Assembly: GCA_965140415.1 (NCBI GenBank)
Contig: OZ223209.1
Span: forward strand, 2,688,001 to 2,752,000
Origin: Myxococcota bacterium
GTDB lineage: Bacteria > Myxococcota_A > SURF-8
Direction of reading: 5' to 3'
Length of the DNA: 64,000 nucleotides
A model generated the notes under the pieces. The model searched no databases. It had not been told where the DNA came from and worked only from the letters and a program-made list of their open reading frames with translations. A program made the translations under genes and the position numbers. Positions 11,965 through 44,717 of this stretch are shown in pieces. Within the stretch, counting starts at the first letter, position 1. Each line of letters begins with the position of its first letter.

Positions 11965-13287
11965 ATGGAGGCAGTGCGTAAACACGTTTTTTTCGTGGCG
12001 TTTATTGTATTGATTCTCTGTTCGATTTACGCCTGCGATACCACACCTGAGAAAATCGACGTTTGGGCCGATTCCGTAAACGGTGAAACACGCATCGCCC
12101 AGGCGATTTCCAATGCCGATTTGGAATTGTCCATTCGTGTTTACGGCGTGATCAAGTTAATTAAGGTCCGCCAATTCGATCTGTTGTTGAAAACCCTGAA
12201 ATCGCTTCCAAAGGCGGATCGCAGCGCATTGTTTAAAGCCTCTGCGCCGGAAATCGGCAAGATGTTTACTGTGCCGGATCTCTCCACCCAGGCAGCCGGC
12301 AAAGATATGCTCTACCTGTTGATGACGATGGAGCAGAAGGCGGTGCAGAAATCCGCGCAGCAGGCGATTTTGCACTGGTATGAAAAAGATTTTCTTAAGA
12401 AATACTCTGCCGGAAAGTTCTCCGCCCACCATGTGTTGACTCAAATCGGTCCGGCTGCTGGAGATCTGCTGGTGAAACTCATGGAGAGCGAACCCAAGGG
12501 ACGCGTAAAAGTAGCTAAGATCGTTGCGGAAATCAATGATCCACAGGTAACTTCACAGGTGTCGGACTATTTTCTGACGCAGTTGAAAGAACAAACTCCA
12601 GACTTGAAACCGGATCTGTTACAGGTGATCTGTTATGCGCGAGATGATCGGGTTACGGAATTTCTAAATCACTATGTTGTAGAAAAAAAGAATCCGTTGG
12701 CGATCCGATTGAATGCCTTCAATACGTTGACTTTCCTGCCTTCCAAATTGACCTTGCCTGCGGCTACGCGAATCTTCATCGATCGAAACGAATCGATCGA
12801 CATGCGGGGGATCGCGATAGAATTGCTTCAAAAAATCGGAGACGAGTCCATTCTTAAATATCTGTATCCCTTCCTTAAGGACCAGGATGTAAAATGGGCG
12901 ACCTTCGCGGCAATCTTGAAAGTGGGAGGTGAAACGGAGATCGGCAAAATATTGGATTCTTTAAATCCCAGGGTGACGTTCTGGCGTGGAGACTACGATG
13001 TTGCACGACGTCATTTAAAAGAACTTAGCCCAAAAGTCGTGGAACAATTGGTAGGACGTTTGAAATCCAGGAATGTGCCGATTGTGGCGCTGGCTTTGAT
13101 CGGACTGCAATACACAGCGGACATTGACGTCGCCGAAAAACACATCAAGCCTCTGTCTAAAGATAAACGCAACATCAAAAACTATCTCACCGATAAGACG
13201 TTTACCATTGGCATGATGGCAACCGAGATTTACAATATCATCAAGAGTAACTCTTCCGGTTCGGTCAAAAAGACCAATGAGGAATAA
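11965..13287 (+). CDS. HEAT-repeat lipoprotein
   Basis: GGAGG RBS; lipobox IYAC; helical repeats such as MRGIAIELLQKIGD. Confidence 0.65.
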   Translation: MEAVRKHVFFVAFIVLILCSIYACDTTPEKIDVWADSVNGETRIAQAISNADLELSIRVYGVIKLIKVRQFDLLLKTLKSLPKADRSALFKASAPEIGKMFTVPDLSTQAAGKDMLYLLMTMEQKAVQKSAQQAILHWYEKDFLKKYSAGKFSAHHVLTQIGPAAGDLLVKLMESEPKGRVKVAKIVAEINDPQVTSQVSDYFLTQLKEQTPDLKPDLLQVICYARDDRVTEFLNHYVVEKKNPLAIRLNAFNTLTFLPSKLTLPAATRIFIDRNESIDMRGIAIELLQKIGDESILKYLYPFLKDQDVKWATFAAILKVGGETEIGKILDSLNPRVTFWRGDYDVARRHLKELSPKVVEQLVGRLKSRNVPIVALALIGLQYTADIDVAEKHIKPLSKDKRNIKNYLTDKTFTIGMMATEIYNIIKSNSSGSVKKTNEE

Positions 13288-34355: not shown

Positions 34356-34431
34356 GGGGCTATAGCTCAGCTGGGAGAGCGCTTGAATGGCATTCAAGAG
34401 GCCGGCGGTTCGATCCCGCCTAGCTCCACCA
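34356..34431 (+). tRNA. tRNA-Ala(GGC)
   Basis: GGGGCTA...TAGCTCC-ACCA acceptor with G3:U70, anticodon arm CTTGA-ATGGCAT-TCAAG, GTTCGAT T-loop; 76 nt. Confidence 0.97.
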
Positions 34432-34435
34432 AGAA

Positions 34436-34470
34436 AATCAAGGACTTAGCGAATTCGCTAAGTCCTTTTT
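34436..34470. promoter_or_regulatory. IHF-consensus site overlapping a 28-bp perfect palindrome/terminator at the att junction
   Basis: AATCAAGGACTTA matches WATCAANNNNTTR; AAGGACTTAGCGAATTCGCTAAGTCCTT is palindromic and followed by a T-run. Confidence 0.65.
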
Positions 34471-34475
34471 TCTTG

Positions 34476-35663
34476 TCAAATTGACGAATATTGACAAAGG
34501 TGCACGGAAAGCCGCGCCAACTCCGCAATCTCCTCGTTCTCGTGATTCAGGAATTTCCTTCCCAACTCTTCCAGTCTGGCTCGCTCGTGATCCATGCTGG
34601 CCAGGTTCATCTGGCGACTCAGATAGATCGAAGTCAGATGCGAGTACGTGTCCATCGTCGTGCGGACATTCGTGTGCCCGAGCACTGCCTGTGCTGCCGG
34701 AATGCCTCCTCGCATGACCAGATTGGACCCACAGACATGGCGTAGGCTGTGCATGTCGAGTTCGGGGACTCCTGCCCGCCGACACGCCGCCTGTAACCTC
34801 CGGTGCAGATCGGTCCGCAGCTTGGGATACAGGAACTCGGATACCGGACGCCCTTCCACGGCCGGTTCGAGATGGGGGATAGCCACGTCCGGAATGCTCA
34901 GCACCCGCGGTTGTCCATTCTTGGGGCCCTTGATGTACTCGCCGCCCTCTTTGCCGTAAATCCGGACACGCGCCCGGCGGATGTACAAGAGCTTCTTCTG
35001 AAGATCGATATCCTCGATCCGCAGCCCCATGACTTCCTCGCGGCGCAGACCGCAATAACCTGCCAACACCAGACCCGGCCGGGCGCTATCCGATGCCTGT
35101 GCAAAGACACGCTCCAGGTCCTGGCTGTCGAGGATTTCGACCACCTTCTTCTTCCTGCTGAAGGATTGCTTGAAAGGCGACTTCGATAGCCAGCCTGCCT
35201 GGACCGCCGCATTCAGGACGATGGATAGCAATACACCGACATGCTCGCGCATGGACGGGGCGTCAATCTGCTCCAACTCCGCTTCAATCCGCTCCCTTGT
35301 CATCTTCTGAAGCCGAGTCTCCCGGAGTTCCTGCCCGATACGCTTCCAGCAGTTGGTATACGTGGCGATGGTCGTTTTCTCCAAATTCGGGAAACGTTCC
35401 GTGCTCCAATGATCATACCACTGACCAAGTGTAGCATCCCGCTCCGTCGCCAACGGCAGTTCGGTGGCTTCCTTCCTGAGCAACAGCGCCTTTTCGTAGA
35501 CTTCCTCCAGCGCACTTTCATCCCCAAGCACCTTCCGAATGACCTTGCCCTCCCGCCGGTAATCGAACTGAATCGAGCCAGACTTCAAGACCCTCAACTT
35601 CCCAGGGTACAGTTTCGTGTTCATTTTGCGCAGACGTCCCTCTTGACGTTTGGATAACGCCAT
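34476..35663 (-). CDS. int: Tyrosine recombinase/integrase
   Basis: Catalytic residues present: CGLRREE, PKNG, HSLRH, LGH...DTY. Confidence 0.93.
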   Translation of the reverse strand: MALSKRQEGRLRKMNTKLYPGKLRVLKSGSIQFDYRREGKVIRKVLGDESALEEVYEKALLLRKEATELPLATERDATLGQWYDHWSTERFPNLEKTTIATYTNCWKRIGQELRETRLQKMTRERIEAELEQIDAPSMREHVGVLLSIVLNAAVQAGWLSKSPFKQSFSRKKKVVEILDSQDLERVFAQASDSARPGLVLAGYCGLRREEVMGLRIEDIDLQKKLLYIRRARVRIYGKEGGEYIKGPKNGQPRVLSIPDVAIPHLEPAVEGRPVSEFLYPKLRTDLHRRLQAACRRAGVPELDMHSLRHVCGSNLVMRGGIPAAQAVLGHTNVRTTMDTYSHLTSIYLSRQMNLASMDHERARLEELGRKFLNHENEEIAELARLSVHLCQYSSI

Positions 35664-35697
35664 TTTCTCCTCCTATGCTTTCGGTGATTATGGTGAT

Positions 35698-35737
35698 CGC
35701 TGTAGCCCGGAACCCGGATAGGCTCCGGGCTACAGCG
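35698..35737. terminator. GC-rich hairpin between xis-like gene and int
   Basis: CGCTGTAGCCCGGA-N12-TCCGGGCTACAGCG. Confidence 0.6.
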
Positions 35738-35765
35738 TTTAGGTTCTATTTCCCTTATGCCTCAA

Positions 35766-36005
35766 TCACAGCGGCTTTTGCGTCTGCTGCACCAGGTAGC
35801 GCACCAGGTCGTCCTTCCAGAGCAACTTTCGCGAGCCAATGGTGGTGATCTCCAGCCCCTTTGGCGGAGAATATAAGACCGACCGGGACACTGGGATGTT
35901 GGTCTCCCTGCCGATGCGGTCCAGGTCCTTCCGCGCCAAAAGGTCGGGAAAACGCTCCAATAGGGCGTGTACACGCTCTTCCAGATTGTCGTCCACCGAA
36001 CTCAT
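35766..36005 (-). CDS. Putative excisionase (Xis/RDF-like)
   Basis: 79 aa, directly upstream of int; VSRSVLY...TIGSRKLLWKDDLVRYL resembles the Xis winged-helix pattern; GGGAG RBS. Confidence 0.6.
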   Translation of the reverse strand: MSSVDDNLEERVHALLERFPDLLARKDLDRIGRETNIPVSRSVLYSPPKGLEITTIGSRKLLWKDDLVRYLVQQTQKPL

Positions 36006-36091
36006 GACAAACTCCCGGTTCGCAATAATTTGGCTAGGCAATTGCTCCTGATCCTACTTTCTGAGCAGAGACTCGATTTCACTGCTTCCAT
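36002..36091 (-). CDS. 29-aa leader ORF translationally coupled to xis-like gene
   Basis: AAAGGAG RBS 6 nt before ATG; MEAVKSSLCSESRIRSNCLAKLLRTGSLS; stop overlaps the next start (ATGA). Confidence 0.4.
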   Translation of the reverse strand: MEAVKSSLCSESRIRSNCLAKLLRTGSLS

Positions 36092-36152
36092 GTCATGCTC
36101 CTTTCATCTGCGATGTGAATAACCCACGCGACGTCGCTTGGAGCATAACTAC

Positions 36153-36168
36153 AGCAGCATTCGTGCCA
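36153..36168 (-). promoter_or_regulatory. sigma54 (-24/-12) promoter facing xis-int
   Basis: Minus strand TGGCACGAATGCTGCT, i.e. GG-N10-GC with perfect TGGCACG. Confidence 0.75.
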
Positions 36169-36238
36169 TAACCGCAACTAGCCGGAATGACACATGTTGT
36201 GGCATTGTTACTAGGTCTGGGGATTGCAGAATTCACGA

Positions 36239-36270
36239 TTGGAAAGAATTCAATGCCATTTGGAAAGGAT
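36239..36270. promoter_or_regulatory. Candidate bEBP enhancer: TTGGAAAG x2, 21-bp period
   Basis: Copies at 36239 and 36260, about -97 to -125 from the predicted sigma54 start. Confidence 0.55.
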
Positions 36271-36325
36271 AATATCGAGAAAAGGACATCGCCCTTAGCT
36301 GGAGAGTGCTATCTGCTTGTAATAG

Positions 36326-38104
36326 TTACTCAACTGACTGTTTTGAACTCTTCCATGTTGAGTATTTTGCTTCAGTTTCTCCAGCAATCTCTGCAACTCT
36401 TGCTCCGAAGCCAGCATTTGGAGCCCAACCTTCCTGTTCCGCAATCTGTTCGGCGATCATCCATAAATAGCGCTCTATCTCCTCTTTTTCGAGAGAGCTC
36501 AAATATGATTTTAATTTTTCTTCGATTTCCAGATTCTCAACATGTATGGTTTTATTATGAGTCTTATTGACAGCTCCCATAATTGTAGTCTCTAGCTTTC
36601 CTACATTCCCCGTCCAATCATTGAGAAGCAGAGCCAAGCGAGCTTCTTTTTCTATTCTATCTACGCCCGTATTAACCAAAAACGATTTGGCAAGAGGCAT
36701 AATATCCCCCTTGCGTTCTCTTAATGGTGGAATTTCAATCTTGCATTGAATTCGTCGCTTAAGATCGTGCAAAATCTTACCGTTTTGTACAAGTTCCTCA
36801 ATATCCAGGTTACAAGCCATAATTGCCAATACATCCGCTCGGTAAGGATCCAAACCAAGCGGCTCGACTTCCTCCCCATCCATGATCACTTTGAGATGTT
36901 CCTGAATTTCAATCGATGAGTTCTGGAGTTCGTCAATAAACAGCGTCCCTTTATCGGCCTGCTTCAGCTTGCCGATTTCTGCTTGGTCACCTCTGTTGGG
37001 ATAATCCTTTGCCCTTCCAAGTAATTCTCCTCTCAATAAATTTGCATCTCCCTTGTCACCTTTATCAGCAGCACGAAAGATTACAAATTTGTGCGACCTC
37101 CGGCTCGCGATTAGCTGATGGATCAATCTCGCGACGTAGGTTTTTCCCGTTCCTGTTTCTCCAAGCAGGAGCAGGTTTGTTGGAGGAACGCGAGCATCCA
37201 CAACACTAACAAATATCTCCTTGATAAATTCGTAGAACCCTGGACTGTTGCCTACCAACTCCTTTCCCCATTTGCTTTCAGAAATTCTTTTTTGATAGGC
37301 GGAGAGTTTTTTGGACCAATTCACGTCCGACGTGCATATTTGGTTGAAAATCCTTCCTCGAACGAATTCTGGTAGGGGGTCGGAATAATCTCGGATGACT
37401 GGGCCCAAACAGTTATGATAATACGTTAATATCTCTTCATCTTTATAATCGCAAAAAATCGTGTATCTACCCTTTACCCAATCAATCGCAATGTGATCCA
37501 CCCAGATTTTCCCTTGCTCCTGTTCTTGAGAACAGTATTCATGTTCAATGATAAAGTGATCGCCTTGATCATCATGAAAATAAGTGCTCCTGTCATAATA
37601 ACTGGGAAACGAGAACTTGTTGAGCAGCCTTATTAAGCTTCGAATTTGAAAAGGGGCTAGTTTTCTTTGAGTATCGCTTGAGAACTCTTGACTTTCAGCG
37701 TTGACCTCCGAATTCGCTTTCAACAGCTCTTCTGCTCGATCAAACGCTTCGGGACTGAAGGCGCTGGTCATGAGTGCGAGTTCAACAGGTTTCATATTGG
37801 GTATTTCTTGATAAAAGTGGATTCCACCTTTCTCGTTTATCGAGATCAATAAACATCTAAAACCTTCCGCATGGGCCAACGAGTCCACTCTGTCAAAAAG
37901 CAGACTCAGTGGTTCCGATATGGCTACGGGCAATTTTTCAATGGAAGACAGGATTTGATTTGAGCGCAATGGTTTGGGAAAATGCTCAGAAAGGTTCGGT
38001 AATTCAAGAGAGCTGGATGCTCGCCGGAAAAAGTCTTCCCAGTACTCTACATCAATGTCAGCTAGCCGTTCCCAACTGGCTTTTTGTGACTCCGGCATGA
38101 TCAA
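36326..38104 (-). CDS. Atypical sigma54-interaction (bEBP-type AAA+) protein
   Basis: GETGTGKT, GTLFIDE, IPPLRER, W.GNV..L; GAFTGA loop replaced by KDYPNRG; unrecognised ~270-aa N-terminus; C-terminal HTH-like segment; AT-richer than its neighbours. Confidence 0.85.
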   Translation of the reverse strand: MIMPESQKASWERLADIDVEYWEDFFRRASSSLELPNLSEHFPKPLRSNQILSSIEKLPVAISEPLSLLFDRVDSLAHAEGFRCLLISINEKGGIHFYQEIPNMKPVELALMTSAFSPEAFDRAEELLKANSEVNAESQEFSSDTQRKLAPFQIRSLIRLLNKFSFPSYYDRSTYFHDDQGDHFIIEHEYCSQEQEQGKIWVDHIAIDWVKGRYTIFCDYKDEEILTYYHNCLGPVIRDYSDPLPEFVRGRIFNQICTSDVNWSKKLSAYQKRISESKWGKELVGNSPGFYEFIKEIFVSVVDARVPPTNLLLLGETGTGKTYVARLIHQLIASRRSHKFVIFRAADKGDKGDANLLRGELLGRAKDYPNRGDQAEIGKLKQADKGTLFIDELQNSSIEIQEHLKVIMDGEEVEPLGLDPYRADVLAIMACNLDIEELVQNGKILHDLKRRIQCKIEIPPLRERKGDIMPLAKSFLVNTGVDRIEKEARLALLLNDWTGNVGKLETTIMGAVNKTHNKTIHVENLEIEEKLKSYLSSLEKEEIERYLWMIAEQIAEQEGWAPNAGFGARVAEIAGETEAKYSTWKSSKQSVE

Positions 38105-38154
38105 CCCCTTTTCTGAATATAAAGATGCTTTATTTTATAAGAATATCCTTATGT

Positions 38155-38228
38155 TTGGAAAGAAAATAGCGTTACTTAGAAAGGATTTCAAGCGATTTGG
38201 AAAGCATTTGTCCCAATCTAAATTGGGA
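38155..38228. promoter_or_regulatory. TTRGAAAG x3 (21-bp period) plus palindrome upstream of the bEBP gene
   Basis: Copies at 38155, 38176 and 38197; TCCCAAT-ctaa-ATTGGGA at 38211-38228. Confidence 0.55.
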
Positions 38229-38310
38229 TTCTTTTAGGCCCCCCCCTAGGCTCGGCCGATCCGACAGCGGCTCAAAACCAGTCCGGAAAGATCCGCCGCG
38301 AATCCGTCCC

Positions 38311-39084
38311 TTACATCACGCCCAGCACCCAGCCTTCGATCGACTGCGCAATATGGTGCTCCGCATCCGTCAACTGCGGATGAAAGTACGCCTCTAGGCG
38401 ACCGGTACGGTCCATTTCGGATAGCCAGCGCGACACGGCATAGGCGTCGTGTTCGTGGGAATTGCGATCCTCTCGCGGATAGCGGCGGCTGAACATAGAT
38501 GGATAGATTTCCGCTATGACCGATTTGTTCTCCGGCGGCGTCCAACCATCAAAGGGCCAGAAATGGACCCGGTCGCCGATTTCCTTTCGGATGTGGGCCA
38601 ACCAGGGGATGCCCGCCCAGCTCGACTTTCCCACCGTGCCTGGACCGTCAAAGCGGAAAACGCTCTTGGCACTTGGTGTCCAAGTTTCCGTGATACACAG
38701 TTCGTCTGGAAAACCGCCCGGTGGCGGTGAGTCGTAAATCTCCCACAGCATGTCGACGTAAACGGCTTCATGAGCGGGCCACAGGCGGGGAAAGACTTCC
38801 AGCAACTGGTTCCAATCGCGCACGCCCTGGCGTTTGAACCAGGCAAGAGGCAAAGAGAAACAATGGTCGATACCAACGATGACGCGCTGCAAGTGTAGTT
38901 GTTCTATTAGCCACTCGGCAATGATCCGTCGGGACCATTTCTGAGGACCATGTGGTCGGGCGTCAGGAGTGGGGACGCGTCGGGGTTCCTCGCCTTGGGC
39001 GGATTGATAGACAGCCAGTCCCTTCAGGCGGCTTTCAGCCGTTTCTGCCCCGGAGTAGTCAATACCGATGTATGAGTCGTACAT
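38311..39084 (-). CDS. RNase H-fold hypothetical protein (DUF429-like)
   Basis: YIGIDYSGA, VGIDHCFSLP, HFWPFDG, AEIYP, HEHDAYA, EGWVLG. Confidence 0.65.
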   Translation of the reverse strand: MYDSYIGIDYSGAETAESRLKGLAVYQSAQGEEPRRVPTPDARPHGPQKWSRRIIAEWLIEQLHLQRVIVGIDHCFSLPLAWFKRQGVRDWNQLLEVFPRLWPAHEAVYVDMLWEIYDSPPPGGFPDELCITETWTPSAKSVFRFDGPGTVGKSSWAGIPWLAHIRKEIGDRVHFWPFDGWTPPENKSVIAEIYPSMFSRRYPREDRNSHEHDAYAVSRWLSEMDRTGRLEAYFHPQLTDAEHHIAQSIEGWVLGVM

Positions 39085-39146
39085 GGTTTCACCCAAACTT
39101 TTTACGTTTCGGAGGTCGGACGCAAACGAAAATCATGCAAAGTACC

Positions 39147-39360
39147 TTACCGTTTGACGAACATGCGAAAAAACTCCTGAAAGGAAGAACAGTCATCCGT
39201 ATCCCGCATCGTCACCCATCCACCGAAGCGATATCGTCGCCAGCATTTGATCCCGTCAATGAACACGGGGTTGTCACCGCCATCGTATGACTGAATGACT
39301 AGTATGCTGGAGTTTTCATTGGCTTTCTTCATCGCTTCCTTCGCTTCCGGATACTGGCTG
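39147..39360 (-). pseudogene. 3' remnant of an unknown gene joined to the IS4 fragment
   Basis: Frame reads QYPEAKEAMKK...DGIKCWRRYRFGGWVTMRD...; upstream sequence is transposase. Confidence 0.4.
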
Positions 39361-39861
39361 CAAGGCCTGCTGCTCGACGGCAACCATCGACCCTTCGCCG
39401 CTGTGGCGCACGATGGTCTTCCACCAGATCGGCAACGCCCGACCGTCTCTGGGCAGGGCGGCGCACAAGGTCTGATAGCGACCGTATTCGGTCCAATCGA
39501 GCAGGATGACGACCGGTGCATTGGGAGGAGCCAACTCGTTGGCGAGGGTCTGCTGGATGGATTCGATTTCCAGCCGCGCGTTGCGAAAGAAGCGCCAGAC
39601 GCGCTTAATGGCATGTTTGGCTGTAGTGCGGCTCTGCATCGCCCGTCCCAGGGCTAGCACGCCTGCTCCGGTCATGCACATGGCCGCCGCAACCACACTG
39701 GCCAAAGTTTTTTGACGTGATCGACGCATGGGCTTTACATGGCGCTCGATCCAGTAGAAAATGGCATGGGGACTCGTCATGGATCACCTCATTATGGAAA
39801 CTAGACACTTCCGATGTTACTCCATGGCAAGTCCCTTTCAAAATTACTGGGGATAGGTCAG
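39361..39861 (-). mobile_element. Truncated IS4-family (IS10-like) element: left end plus 5' transposase
   Basis: TAKHAIKRVWRFFRN, LLDWT, GRALPIWW; terminal CTGACCTATCCCCAG at 39861-39847; ATG at 39780. Confidence 0.75.
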
Positions 39862-42563: not shown

Positions 42564-44717
42564 CTATGGTAGTTTCCATAAATACAAATTCGGCATCGTA
42601 CCGCCGCCTAAAAGAATCCGTTTTTCTTGATGGTAGGCCAAGGTGTACATGGTGCCTTTCGGTACTTTCCACCAAGAAACCGGTGAGGCAGTTGATAAAT
42701 CCCAGAGCCTAACTCCCCTTTTTTTGCCGGTTTCTGCAAGCAGATTTCCACTGATGAATGTAATGGCAGATACAGGATTGGGATATCCTTCCAATTTTGT
42801 TTTACTCTGCCCCGTCATGGCTTCGTAAATCATTATCTGTCCCGAATCACTTCCCACGGCCACCCATTTTGAATTCGGTGAAAACGCAATGGCGGTCAGC
42901 GACGATTTGTTTTTTATCGTGTGCAATTTCTCCGCACGCGGTCCTCCCCAGATTATCAATCTGCCATCGGAACCGACGGAAGCCAATAGTTCTCCGTCTG
43001 GAGAGAAAGCAAGTTTATTAACAAATCCGCGATGCCCTTTTAAAACGGACAACAAACTTCCATCGGATAAATTCCACAGGCGAATAGTTTCATCCATACT
43101 TCCACTTGCCAGGATTCGGCCATCGGGAGAATAGGCAAGGGAATTTACGTCTCGTTTGTGGCCTTGGAGTTTGAAAATTGTACGTCCATCTTTGATTCTT
43201 GAAATGAGAATGGTTTTATCATAGCCACCGGACGCTATCTGCTTGTCGTTCGGAGAGAAGGCCACGGAAGAGACTGCTCCAAGATGAAAAGGGATATCGA
43301 CACGGATTTCAAAAGTGTCGATGCTGCGAACGTGCACTCCGCCGCGTAAACACAGAACATCGGAATAGTCTGCACAGCCCCCCTCTATAAACAGGTCTCC
43401 GCCGGAAGAAAAATCAAGAGCTTGGATACCACTGTCAAACGTTTTGATTTCGACGGGCTTGAGGTCGGAGAAAGAATCTCCCTGATTCAGTAACTTAAGA
43501 GAATGTTTCTCGTGATCGATACTTTTTAAAAGTTTTTCGGCTTGCAGGCGATGCCGATTTTCGAGATGGAAATCCTCTAAAAAATTGGCGACGCTTTCCC
43601 GCCGCTTGGATGCCGGTACGGCCTCCATTCGAGCGACTTTGTATACCGTACTCCAGGCATCTTCCAGTTTTTCCAGATATTGTTTGTGCTCTTCAGCATC
43701 TTCCTTTTTCTGAATTTCGATTTTCTCTGCATCCTTTAACAGGGCTCCATAGGCTTTCATGTCGGGAGTCCGGTAACCGTTTCCGGCTGAGTTCTCCGGC
43801 CTGGACGCCAATCGAAAAACAATCTGACCCGATCCGTACATAACCCCGAAATCAGGCGTTTGCAGACGATTTCTGGCACCTACATTCTGCTCGGTATACA
43901 TACCGATTTCCTTGAAAGTGACAAAACCGTCACCGTTATAATCCGCATTGCCTTGAAGTGCCTTCACCAGCACGGCCGTGAACAATCCGTCTATAACAGG
44001 TTGATCCTGCATTCCGGCCGTAATCCCGTATACTCCCCGTTTTCTGAGATAGTCTTCGATAAGGCCATCCGCGATTCCGGCCCTCGTCAACAACGTCCCT
44101 GAAAAGCAGGAATCCAGAATCACTAGGACGTGCTTGGCCTGGCAGTGGTTGAGGATCTCCTCTCGAAGTTGATTGACGGAAATATAATTGGAGATATCAC
44201 CGGATTTTCCTTCAACCGGAACGAGATAACCGGCAGCTGTGGCATCCCATTTCGATTTTTTAGTAAATCCGTGTCCAGAGTAGTAGACAACGAAGCGGCC
44301 ATGCCTGTCGGTCTTGGCTGCCATTTTTCTAAGCGTTTGAATAATGCCCTGGAACGTTGCCTGTTTGTTGAACAGTGTATGCACCGTGAAATCATGCTGT
44401 TCAAGCACGGTTACCATTCGTTTTGCGTCAGCAACAGCCTCCCCAAGTCGGCTCCAGCCATGCGAATAGTCATCGATTCCTATAACAAGGGCATGGCTGG
44501 CGGCATACCAGCCGTTAAGTCGTTTGTTACCGCTTTCTCTTACTCCGATACCGCGCTGTCTGATCCCATCGGATTGAGCCAGGTTTGACATCGGTGCGGC
44601 AAGGATCAGTAATCCAAGGCCGATTGAAGCCAACCAGTGAAAACAAATACTCCATCGAAAGGAAATCGCTGGTCCTTCCCCGTGTAAGAATATTTTGATT
44701 TTTGATTGCCGCCCCAT
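42564..44717 (-). CDS. Exported caspase-family (peptidase C14) protease with WD40 propeller
   Basis: ALVIGIDDY, YYSGHG, ILDSCFSG (His/Cys dyad intact), QTP; GH..VNSLAYSPDG..LASGS.D WD40 repeats; N-terminal hydrophobic segment. Confidence 0.9.
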   Translation of the reverse strand: MGRQSKIKIFLHGEGPAISFRWSICFHWLASIGLGLLILAAPMSNLAQSDGIRQRGIGVRESGNKRLNGWYAASHALVIGIDDYSHGWSRLGEAVADAKRMVTVLEQHDFTVHTLFNKQATFQGIIQTLRKMAAKTDRHGRFVVYYSGHGFTKKSKWDATAAGYLVPVEGKSGDISNYISVNQLREEILNHCQAKHVLVILDSCFSGTLLTRAGIADGLIEDYLRKRGVYGITAGMQDQPVIDGLFTAVLVKALQGNADYNGDGFVTFKEIGMYTEQNVGARNRLQTPDFGVMYGSGQIVFRLASRPENSAGNGYRTPDMKAYGALLKDAEKIEIQKKEDAEEHKQYLEKLEDAWSTVYKVARMEAVPASKRRESVANFLEDFHLENRHRLQAEKLLKSIDHEKHSLKLLNQGDSFSDLKPVEIKTFDSGIQALDFSSGGDLFIEGGCADYSDVLCLRGGVHVRSIDTFEIRVDIPFHLGAVSSVAFSPNDKQIASGGYDKTILISRIKDGRTIFKLQGHKRDVNSLAYSPDGRILASGSMDETIRLWNLSDGSLLSVLKGHRGFVNKLAFSPDGELLASVGSDGRLIIWGGPRAEKLHTIKNKSSLTAIAFSPNSKWVAVGSDSGQIMIYEAMTGQSKTKLEGYPNPVSAITFISGNLLAETGKKRGVRLWDLSTASPVSWWKVPKGTMYTLAYHQEKRILLGGGTMPNLYLWKLP

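Follow-up and report, generated by a model that had tools for sequence, protein, structure and literature searches.

A 64,000-nt stretch of the genome of a Myxococcota bacterium (assembly GCA_965140415.1, contig OZ223209.1, positions 2,688,001 to 2,752,000; hereafter the window) contains the left end of an integrative and replicative island of 62.5 kb located in a tRNA-Ala gene. Three transcription units of this island are each preceded by a sigma-54-type -24/-12 box and, further upstream, by two phased copies of a 10-bp site: the leader-xis-int genes of the excision module (promoter P-xis), an open reading frame (ORF) of 221 amino acids with a family-A DNA polymerase (orf221-PolA, P-pol), and a DUF927 protein (P-pri). 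This three-fold composite is not a chance pattern, and it is very probable that the excision and replication genes form a real sigma-54/enhancer regulon. The best explanation of the whole, which is held tentatively, is an island-borne enhancer-dependent switch run by an AAA+ protein whose gene adjoins xis and which descends from a bacterial enhancer-binding protein (bEBP).

The promoter module and its distribution

A preliminary description of this DNA, made from its letters, placed a sigma-54 promoter before the xis-int genes, with two repeats upstream of it. The box is confirmed at 36168-36153 on the minus strand, and so are the two copies of the repeat TTGGAAAG, at 36239-36246 and 36260-36267; they are phased by 21 bp and precede the predicted start by 97-125 bp. 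The corresponding features of the window are the following.

36153..36168, minus strand: sigma-54-type -24/-12 box TGGCACGAATGCTGCT, from a consensus scan; predicted start ~36142, taking the GC at 36155/36154 as -13/-12
36237..36267, minus strand: P-xis enhancer, made of the distal site CTTTCCAAAT and the proximal site CTTTCCAATC, 21 bp apart, with a gap of 70 nt to the box

The box differs from TGGCACGN4TTGCW solely at the weakly conserved -15 position, and it is the only match of the window at one mismatch or less. The loose box pattern is not enriched (7 matches at up to two mismatches, 9.8 expected), while the bare 8-mer TTGGAAAG is mildly so (8 copies in the window against 3.6 expected, a count reached by 3 of 100 shuffles). 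Genome-wide, 53 boxes are found at up to one mismatch against 26-39 in controls, and a single box is therefore weak evidence. Four of these 53 boxes belong to the island, which represents 1.05% of the genome. Of the eight genome matches to TGGCACG-N5-TGCW, six fall between genes, in a genome which a crude ORF mask classes as ~91% coding.

The composite of box and phased sites is present at three places in the island.

P-xis (leader-xis-int): enhancer CTTTCCAAAT-N11-CTTTCCAATC, gap 70 nt, box TGGCACGAATGCTGCT, 147 nt from box to xis ATG
P-pol (orf221-PolA): enhancer CTTTCCAAAT-N11-CTTGCCAAAC, gap 71 nt, box TGGCACGCATGATGCT, 31 nt from box to ATG
P-pri (DUF927): enhancer CTTTCCAAAT-N11-GTTGCCAAAC, gap 77 nt, box TGGCGCGGTCTTTGCT, 89 nt from box to ATG

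P-pol and P-pri, with their phased CTTTCCAA enhancers, are located outside the window near the right attachment repeat (attR) of the island, at G000:C1:2779253-2779368 and 2781561-2781682 in the numbering of the host genome (L018:10253-10368 and 12561-12682). The three boxes are each one mismatch away from the extended consensus TGGCAC-N5-TTGCW, retain GG-N10-GC, are intergenic and face a gene; the genes that they directly precede are core mobility genes having ribosome-binding sites. The three enhancers share the form CTTTCCAAAT-N11-YTTKCCAAWC, that is, two sites phased by 21 bp at a near-fixed distance, between -97 and about -130. When the three promoters are aligned, the distal site is identical at 10/10 positions in all three pairs and the proximal one at 7-9/10, the stretch between the sites matches at only 4-5/11, and the spacer is 36-49% identical. 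In the box, TGGC.CG and TGCT are conserved and the N4 segment is variable.

A genome scan with TTKCYAA-N14-TTKCYAA returned 10 matches, of which five fall in the island. Three of these are followed by a sigma-54 box on the same strand, and the remaining two, which overlap each other, belong to the array of three sites that precedes the AAA+ gene. The reversed genome, used as a control, contained five phased pairs, none of them with a box. A looser scan (box at up to two mismatches, any two sites between -170 and -40, whatever their orientation) recovered only the three island promoters and no host promoter; its control gave two hits, both with two-mismatch boxes and unphased sites of mixed orientation. 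Among 151 genomes, the composite of phased pair and box occurs in one, the island's own, and in none of the 150 related genomes. The 10-mer CTTTCCAAAT itself has 26 copies in the genome, four of them in the island where 0.27 would be expected, with one copy in each regulatory region (the three promoters and the region upstream of the AAA+ gene). Since this architecture is replicated three times and in the island only, the regulon would cover the replication genes as well as xis-int. The host possesses rpoN as an open 514-aa frame (Sigma54_DBD, E 3.8e-66), and its sigma-54 holoenzyme would be the polymerase that uses the boxes, as judged from their sequence.

Five matches to the composite pattern were also obtained in metagenome contigs, for a chance expectation roughly estimated at 1-2. 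They were rejected as chance matches, as all five lack a -12 TGC in register and are without any island protein nearby.

Three further observations concern the boxes and their surroundings. A block of the form CAYGT..A..C.G..AG.T.CG is present in all three promoters between the enhancer and the -24 element (columns ~88-116 of alignment A3, ~36172-36199 on the minus strand); it could be the site of a bending protein or of a third regulator, and no clear consensus for the integration host factor was found in it. A fourth one-mismatch box, TGGCACGACCATTGCG, lies inside the DUF927 coding sequence (G000:C1:2780813-2780828, L018:11813-11828) without an upstream enhancer pair, and is possibly due to chance. 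Finally, many host boxes at up to one mismatch are located within ~1 kb of bEBP-like genes (for example the pairs 652089/652500, 821042/821312, 2884774/2885291 and 4629266/4628282), which suggests that bEBP-adjacent sigma-54 operons are widespread in the host.

The AAA+ protein and the proposed switch

The gene adjacent to xis was described as coding for a bEBP-type AAA+ protein preceded by three copies of the same repeat. The core proved to be that of a bEBP, and the protein is not a standard member of the family; of the three repeats, two are exact copies of TTGGAAAG (38155-38162 and 38197-38204) and the middle one (38176-38183) is the one-mismatch variant TTAGAAAG.

36326..38104, minus strand: bEBP-derived AAA+ regulator gene, 592 aa from a TTG or 590 aa from the ATG at 38098, assigned with Pfam, the PDB and AlphaFold2 (AF2)
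38153..38204, minus strand: three phased sites CTTTCCAAAT, CTTTCTAAGT and CTTTCCAAAC before the AAA+ gene, not followed by a sigma-54 box
38132..38191, minus strand: two overlapping sigma-70-like promoter matches, TTGAAA-17-TATTTT and TTTCCA-18-TAAAAT, from a consensus scan only

The sigma-70-like matches overlap the repeat sites. A three-site array at a sigma-70-like promoter that lacks a sigma-54 box is what an autoregulated regulator usually shows. The five repeat copies of the two sets, at P-xis and before the AAA+ gene, are all on the plus strand and are phased by 21 bp within each set. The pattern TTRGAAAG-N13-TTRGAAAG occurs at three places in the 5.98-Mb genome, all within these two sets flanking the AAA+ gene, and nowhere in a control read backwards. 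The possibility that the two sets are transposon ends was rejected, since the five sites share one orientation.

The AAA+ core matches the Pfam family Sigma54_activat (PF00158, E 2.7e-25), together with AAA_lid_14, and in the PDB it matches NtrC1 (phmmer, E 3.6e-26). The AF2 model of the core has a predicted local distance difference test score (pLDDT) of 86 and superposes with VIA-align on NtrC1, LuxO and FlrC with Z ~25 and root-mean-square deviations of 1.7-2.4 over ~240 residues. The ATPase motifs GETGTGKT and LFIDEL, as well as N432, R451 and R462/R464, are intact and invariant in the relative P0123. The protein descends from a bEBP. Its gene is the only Sigma54_activat-like gene of the island, and 28 other bEBP-like genes are encoded by the host.

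The termini are less easily assigned. In the AF2 model, the C-terminal tail folds as three helices, with block pLDDT values mostly of 77-87 and below 50 for the last few residues; these helices are co-linear with the C-terminus of NtrX (model 1-313 against chain 140-452). For the N-terminal ~280-288 residues, 1.84 billion representatives yielded a single relative, P0123, with 27% identity to the AAA+ protein over its full length (E 8e-49). Among 5.8 billion clusters, the other matches cover the AAA+ part only. No family or fold was assigned to the N-terminal region; AF2, run from three sequences, gave a pLDDT of 59, Foldseek returned no match at E <=0.001, the best wide VIA-align match had a Z of 6.4, and an Atlas feature search yielded a weak GAF lead of 0.85, below its 0.9 level. 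An identity as a CARF-type RtcR was considered and rejected: the CARF_AAA_HTH models of PADLOC match the AAA+ core only, and no CARF domain was detected.

In the proposed mechanism, transcription from P-xis would cover the leader ORF and xis, and probably int as well; P-pol would drive orf221 and the DNA polymerase, and P-pri the primase/helicase. The phased sites would be recognised by the C-terminus of the AAA+ protein, which, at the three further sites before its gene, would repress or tune its own sigma-70 promoter. A signal perceived by the N-terminus would lead the protein to oligomerise on the enhancers, so that excision and replication are turned on in concert. Since the enhancer distance is fixed, no host targets are found and an array is present at its own gene, the AAA+ protein is favoured as the binder, in an activator geometry. 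That it binds the sites is likely; that it is also the direct activator, remodelling the sigma-54 holoenzyme despite having no GAFTGA, is possible and is put forward with reserve. The full proposal, in which a GAFTGA-less AAA+ ATPase activates sigma-54 from phased direct repeats as the single master switch of excision and autonomous replication, is more doubtful. Of the sigma-54 excision switch envisaged at the outset, the promoter/enhancer architecture and rpoN stand, reinforced by the three-fold replication in the island, while a standard bEBP as activator does not.

Several observations weigh against a switch run in this way by the AAA+ protein. The most serious concerns the L1 loop, which in an ungapped alignment to NtrC1 reads DYPNRG opposite GAFTGA, although the loop length is kept. 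Of the 28 host paralogues, 25 match G[AS][FY][TS]G[AS], two carry GAFSEA or GAFTDA, and one has no such motif in the matched piece. The relative P0123 is also devoid of GAFTGA and has no aromatic residue there. An arginine of the AAA+ protein aligns with the asparagine of the NtrC1 'ALNVAS' segment, the partner of the 'glutamate switch'. In the C-terminus, neither HTH_8 (even at E up to 10) nor any other DNA-binding family was detected. An ATP-dependent activator would therefore be in conflict with one defining bEBP feature, as GAFTGA, the sigma-54 contact at the tip of loop L1, is replaced and no HTH_8 is found. The gene itself, at 42% G+C between neighbours at 57%, may be a later insertion. 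As for the promoters, duplication may have given the three modules a common origin, in which case they would not represent three fully independent events, and a strong hairpin between xis and int means that read-through to int is not assured. Box conservation at homologous int loci was not observed: nine such loci in other genomes (39-48% identity) have no comparable upstream box, and neither have seven loci of DUF927 homologues (31-34% identity). The wiring thus belongs to this element rather than to its gene families at large, and it is so far confined to one genome.

The search for closer relatives did not extend this distribution. Scans of genome, metagenome and viral contigs (alignments A1 and A6) gave no relative of the AAA+ and xis proteins, a search of 400 genomes of the phylum with int returned nothing closer than 48% identity, and the DUF927 search of genome contigs gave no close relative. 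The homologues P0123/P0124 of the AAA+ family and P0127/P0128 of the xis family are on contigs of the same two sizes, 739,058 and 378,016 bp, which indicates that the two families co-occur in the only other lineage known.

The alternative that survives best, while unlikely, keeps the AAA+ protein on the CTTTCCAA sites without any remodelling of the sigma-54 holoenzyme: it would be a sigma-70-type regulator, a repressor or an architectural factor, and a host bEBP would fire the promoters, for example from solution. The absence of GAFTGA and the change at the aligned glutamate-switch position fit this view, as do the sites lying across the -35 of the sigma-70-like promoter at the AAA+ gene, and the 28 bEBP-like genes available in the host. 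The studied GAFTGA-less bEBPs moreover work at sigma-70 promoters, according to PMC10274813. In the cases treated there, however, the L1 loop is deleted, whereas the island protein has an L1 insertion of full length. The sites lie 70-77 nt before the -24 element, clear of the boxes, a geometry that suits an activator and not a repressor. In addition, the lack of any host promoter with these sites, and of the composite in all 150 relatives, leaves no host bEBP of this specificity in evidence.

It is less probable still that another host or island protein binds the repeats, the AAA+ gene being either a fourth target under the same control or cargo of no relation inserted beside xis. The difference in G+C content between the AAA+ cassette and int-xis would be explained in this way, no DNA-binding family is detected in the AAA+ protein, and many island ORFs are without family assignment. 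Yet the AAA+ gene alone has three sites without a sigma-54 box, as is usual for an autoregulator, its product is the sole bEBP-type protein of the island, and its family accompanies that of xis on the same two foreign contigs. Most improbable is that the island, ridden with insertion sequences (IS), is decaying, and that its boxes and repeats are left over from an intergenic cassette that was once duplicated and has no sigma-54 function at present: IS fragments, host-like cargo, the weakness of a single box against the genome background (53 boxes against 26-39) and residual similarity in the spacer blocks agree with it, but the att repeats are perfect (48/48), open reading frames are retained by int, xis, AAA+, PolA and DUF927, identity is concentrated where sigma-54 and a site-binding protein would read, and each of the three modules immediately precedes core mobility genes that have ribosome-binding sites.

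Comparison with known regulatory systems

The proposed island-borne switch run by the AAA+ protein resembles the classical bEBP/sigma-54 systems (NtrC-glnAp2, PspF-psp, XylR/DmpR, Aquifex NtrC1) in its -24/-12 promoters, with phased upstream sites ~100-125 bp from the start, and in a regulator that combines a Sigma54_activat core, a layout of N-terminal region, ATPase and C-terminal tail, and sites at its own promoter. Unlike the classical regulators, the island protein has DYPNRG for GAFTGA, an N-terminal region of ~280 aa without known family or fold, and no detected HTH_8. The sites also differ, as they are direct repeats on one strand, and so do the targets, which are the excision and replication genes of a mobile element.

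By its core without the sigma-54 contact motif, the protein is comparable to GAFTGA-less bEBP relatives such as R. capsulatus NtrC, Caulobacter NtrC, NtrX and V. cholerae VpsR. The model superposes on NtrX over 275 residues, C-terminus included. TyrR is another GAFTGA-less bEBP relative, regulating sigma-70 promoters. Unlike in these relatives, the sites of the island are in enhancer position before sigma-54-type boxes, the exception being the sigma-70-like promoter of the AAA+ gene itself. A further likeness is with Htm (Gp204) of the Mosigvirus AV110, also an AAA+ protein of a mobile element, structurally bEBP-like and without GAFTGA; it is likened here by its description in a preprint (10.64898/2026.10.06.757011), in which Htm is without a DNA-binding domain and of unresolved function.

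With respect to the control of excision in elements and prophages (CI/Cro, ImmR/ImmA, SetR/SetCD, AlpA, the ICEclc cascade), the likeness is that a regulator of the element adjoins xis-int and would couple excision and replication. Like these integrative elements, the island is integrated in a tRNA gene and possesses a tyrosine integrase and a small gene resembling those of recombination directionality factors (RDFs). It differs from them by its sigma-54-type promoters, and at this end it shows no repressor/antirepressor pair. The wiring had not been recognised as a described one, and a full-text literature search, with subscription journals outside its scope, likewise listed nothing on sigma-54-driven xis/int genes or on a bEBP of an element that controls excision. 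By term search, a 2017 review of integrative and conjugative elements (ICEs; PMC5812530) has RpoN only in the title of one reference. Control by bEBP and sigma-54 and control of island excision are each known, and the island would combine the two.

Sigma-54 promoters are essentially silent without an activator, so that a mobile element could rely on them to stay very tightly off with no need of a repressor. If confirmed, the switch would represent a 'lysogenic switch' design different from the CI, ImmR, SetR and AlpA types, with enhancer-dependent transcription replacing the repressor. It would also show the adaptation of an element to hosts rich in sigma-54 regulators, such as this one with its 28 bEBP-like genes. 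The missing GAFTGA poses a choice: either sigma-54 is activated via a different loop, or a GAFTGA-less relative gates sigma-54 promoters otherwise. Activation without GAFTGA, if true, would be a counter-example to the rule that sigma-54 activation requires this motif. With three promoters, a 10-bp site and an AAA+ protein, the system is compact and directly testable.

The island, its integrase and the xis-like gene

The integrative element of the preliminary description is a bounded island of 62,559 bp (~62.5 kb), delimited by two 48-bp att repeats that were both located, and the AAA+ gene falls inside it. Its left-end features are listed below.

34356..34431, plus strand: tRNA-Ala gene (anticodon GGC), the integration target, found by ARAGORN
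34385..34432, no strand assigned: attL, a 48-bp perfect direct repeat (blastn, 48/48 identical)
34476..35663, minus strand: tyrosine integrase gene int, 395 aa, with a GGAGGAG ribosome-binding site (Pfam Phage_integrase, E 8.4e-17; PHROG_1 integrase, E 2.7e-50)
35698..35737, minus strand: hairpin with an 18-bp stem in the xis-int gap, without a U-tract after the stem on this strand
35766..36005, minus strand: xis-like small gene, 79 aa, a candidate RDF gene, with a GGGAG ribosome-binding site
36002..36091, minus strand: 29-aa leader ORF, whose stop overlaps the xis ATG (ATGA), with GGAG 6 nt before its own ATG

The attL repeat comprises the last 47 nt of the tRNA-Ala gene and one following base. 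A second copy was not found within the window: attR is 62.5 kb to the right, at G000:C1:2784896-2784943, where ARAGORN detects no tRNA. The int gene lies 45 nt from the tRNA-Ala gene, and this association of a tyrosine integrase with a tRNA gene and att repeats is the arrangement by which integrative islands are recognised. In contigs assembled from two DNA runs, positions 34403-38395 are contiguous in one, and breaks occur at the tRNA and at a repeated block of 38.3-39.8 kb.

The leader, xis and int genes expected at this end are all present, and int is a tyrosine recombinase; the xis-like ORF, for its part, belongs to no known family. A comparison of the 79-aa protein with Pfam, PHROG and NCBIfam gave no family and in particular no known RDF or excisionase family, and a single homologue cluster was found (P0127/P0128, 78% identity). 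The profile of this family matches ORFs of 81-91 aa that flank int homologues at five loci of related genomes (hhalign probability 91%, E 1e-6), which supports an int-associated, RDF-like role of the protein; tblastn of the xis-like protein against the int-homologue loci was negative (best E 0.55).

The hairpin between xis and int is part of a 111-nt stretch (35660-35770) with a predicted RNA fold of -47.7 kcal/mol (z -6.7), a stability reached by none of 200 shuffles. Besides the two arms of the hairpin itself, its 13-nt arm has one further copy in the genome (forward strand, 3859603). It is a candidate attenuator, processing or stability element, and with its 18-bp stem it may affect how much transcription reaches int. 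A second hairpin, terminator-like and bidirectional with a 12-bp stem, is found at 34440-34467, between the 3' end of the tRNA-Ala gene and the int stop, just right of attL in the island.

The content of the island was analysed with Pfam on 46 ORFs (E up to 1e-5; one 546-aa ORF spanning two loci was left out). It includes IS fragments, PAS histidine kinases, a caspase-WD40 protein and ThiF-like genes, and, near attR, a Fic protein, the DUF927 protein, the unassigned orf221 and the family-A DNA polymerase. The DUF927 protein is a primase/helicase according to PHROGs (E 3.4e-62). No relaxase or type IV secretion gene was found among these 46 ORFs, and the island is not classed as an ICE on this basis; in place of such genes the island has the replication module formed by PolA and the primase/helicase. 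The G+C content is mosaic, with ~57% for int-xis, ~42% for the AAA+ cassette and ~58% for the repeated 38.3-39.8-kb block, in a genome at 52.4%.

A 261-aa ORF without Pfam family lies at 38302-39097, and the genome has three further copies of it (88%, 85% and 69% DNA identity). Judging from the assembly-contig breaks that surround it, this ORF looks like part of a repeated mobile unit. A fragment of an IS4-family transposase adjoins it at 39316-39780. Further to the right, at 42564-44717, the caspase-WD40 gene encodes a Peptidase_C14 domain together with WD40 repeats and matches the caspase model of PADLOC (E 1.3e-18); it could be cargo of a defence or cell-death type.

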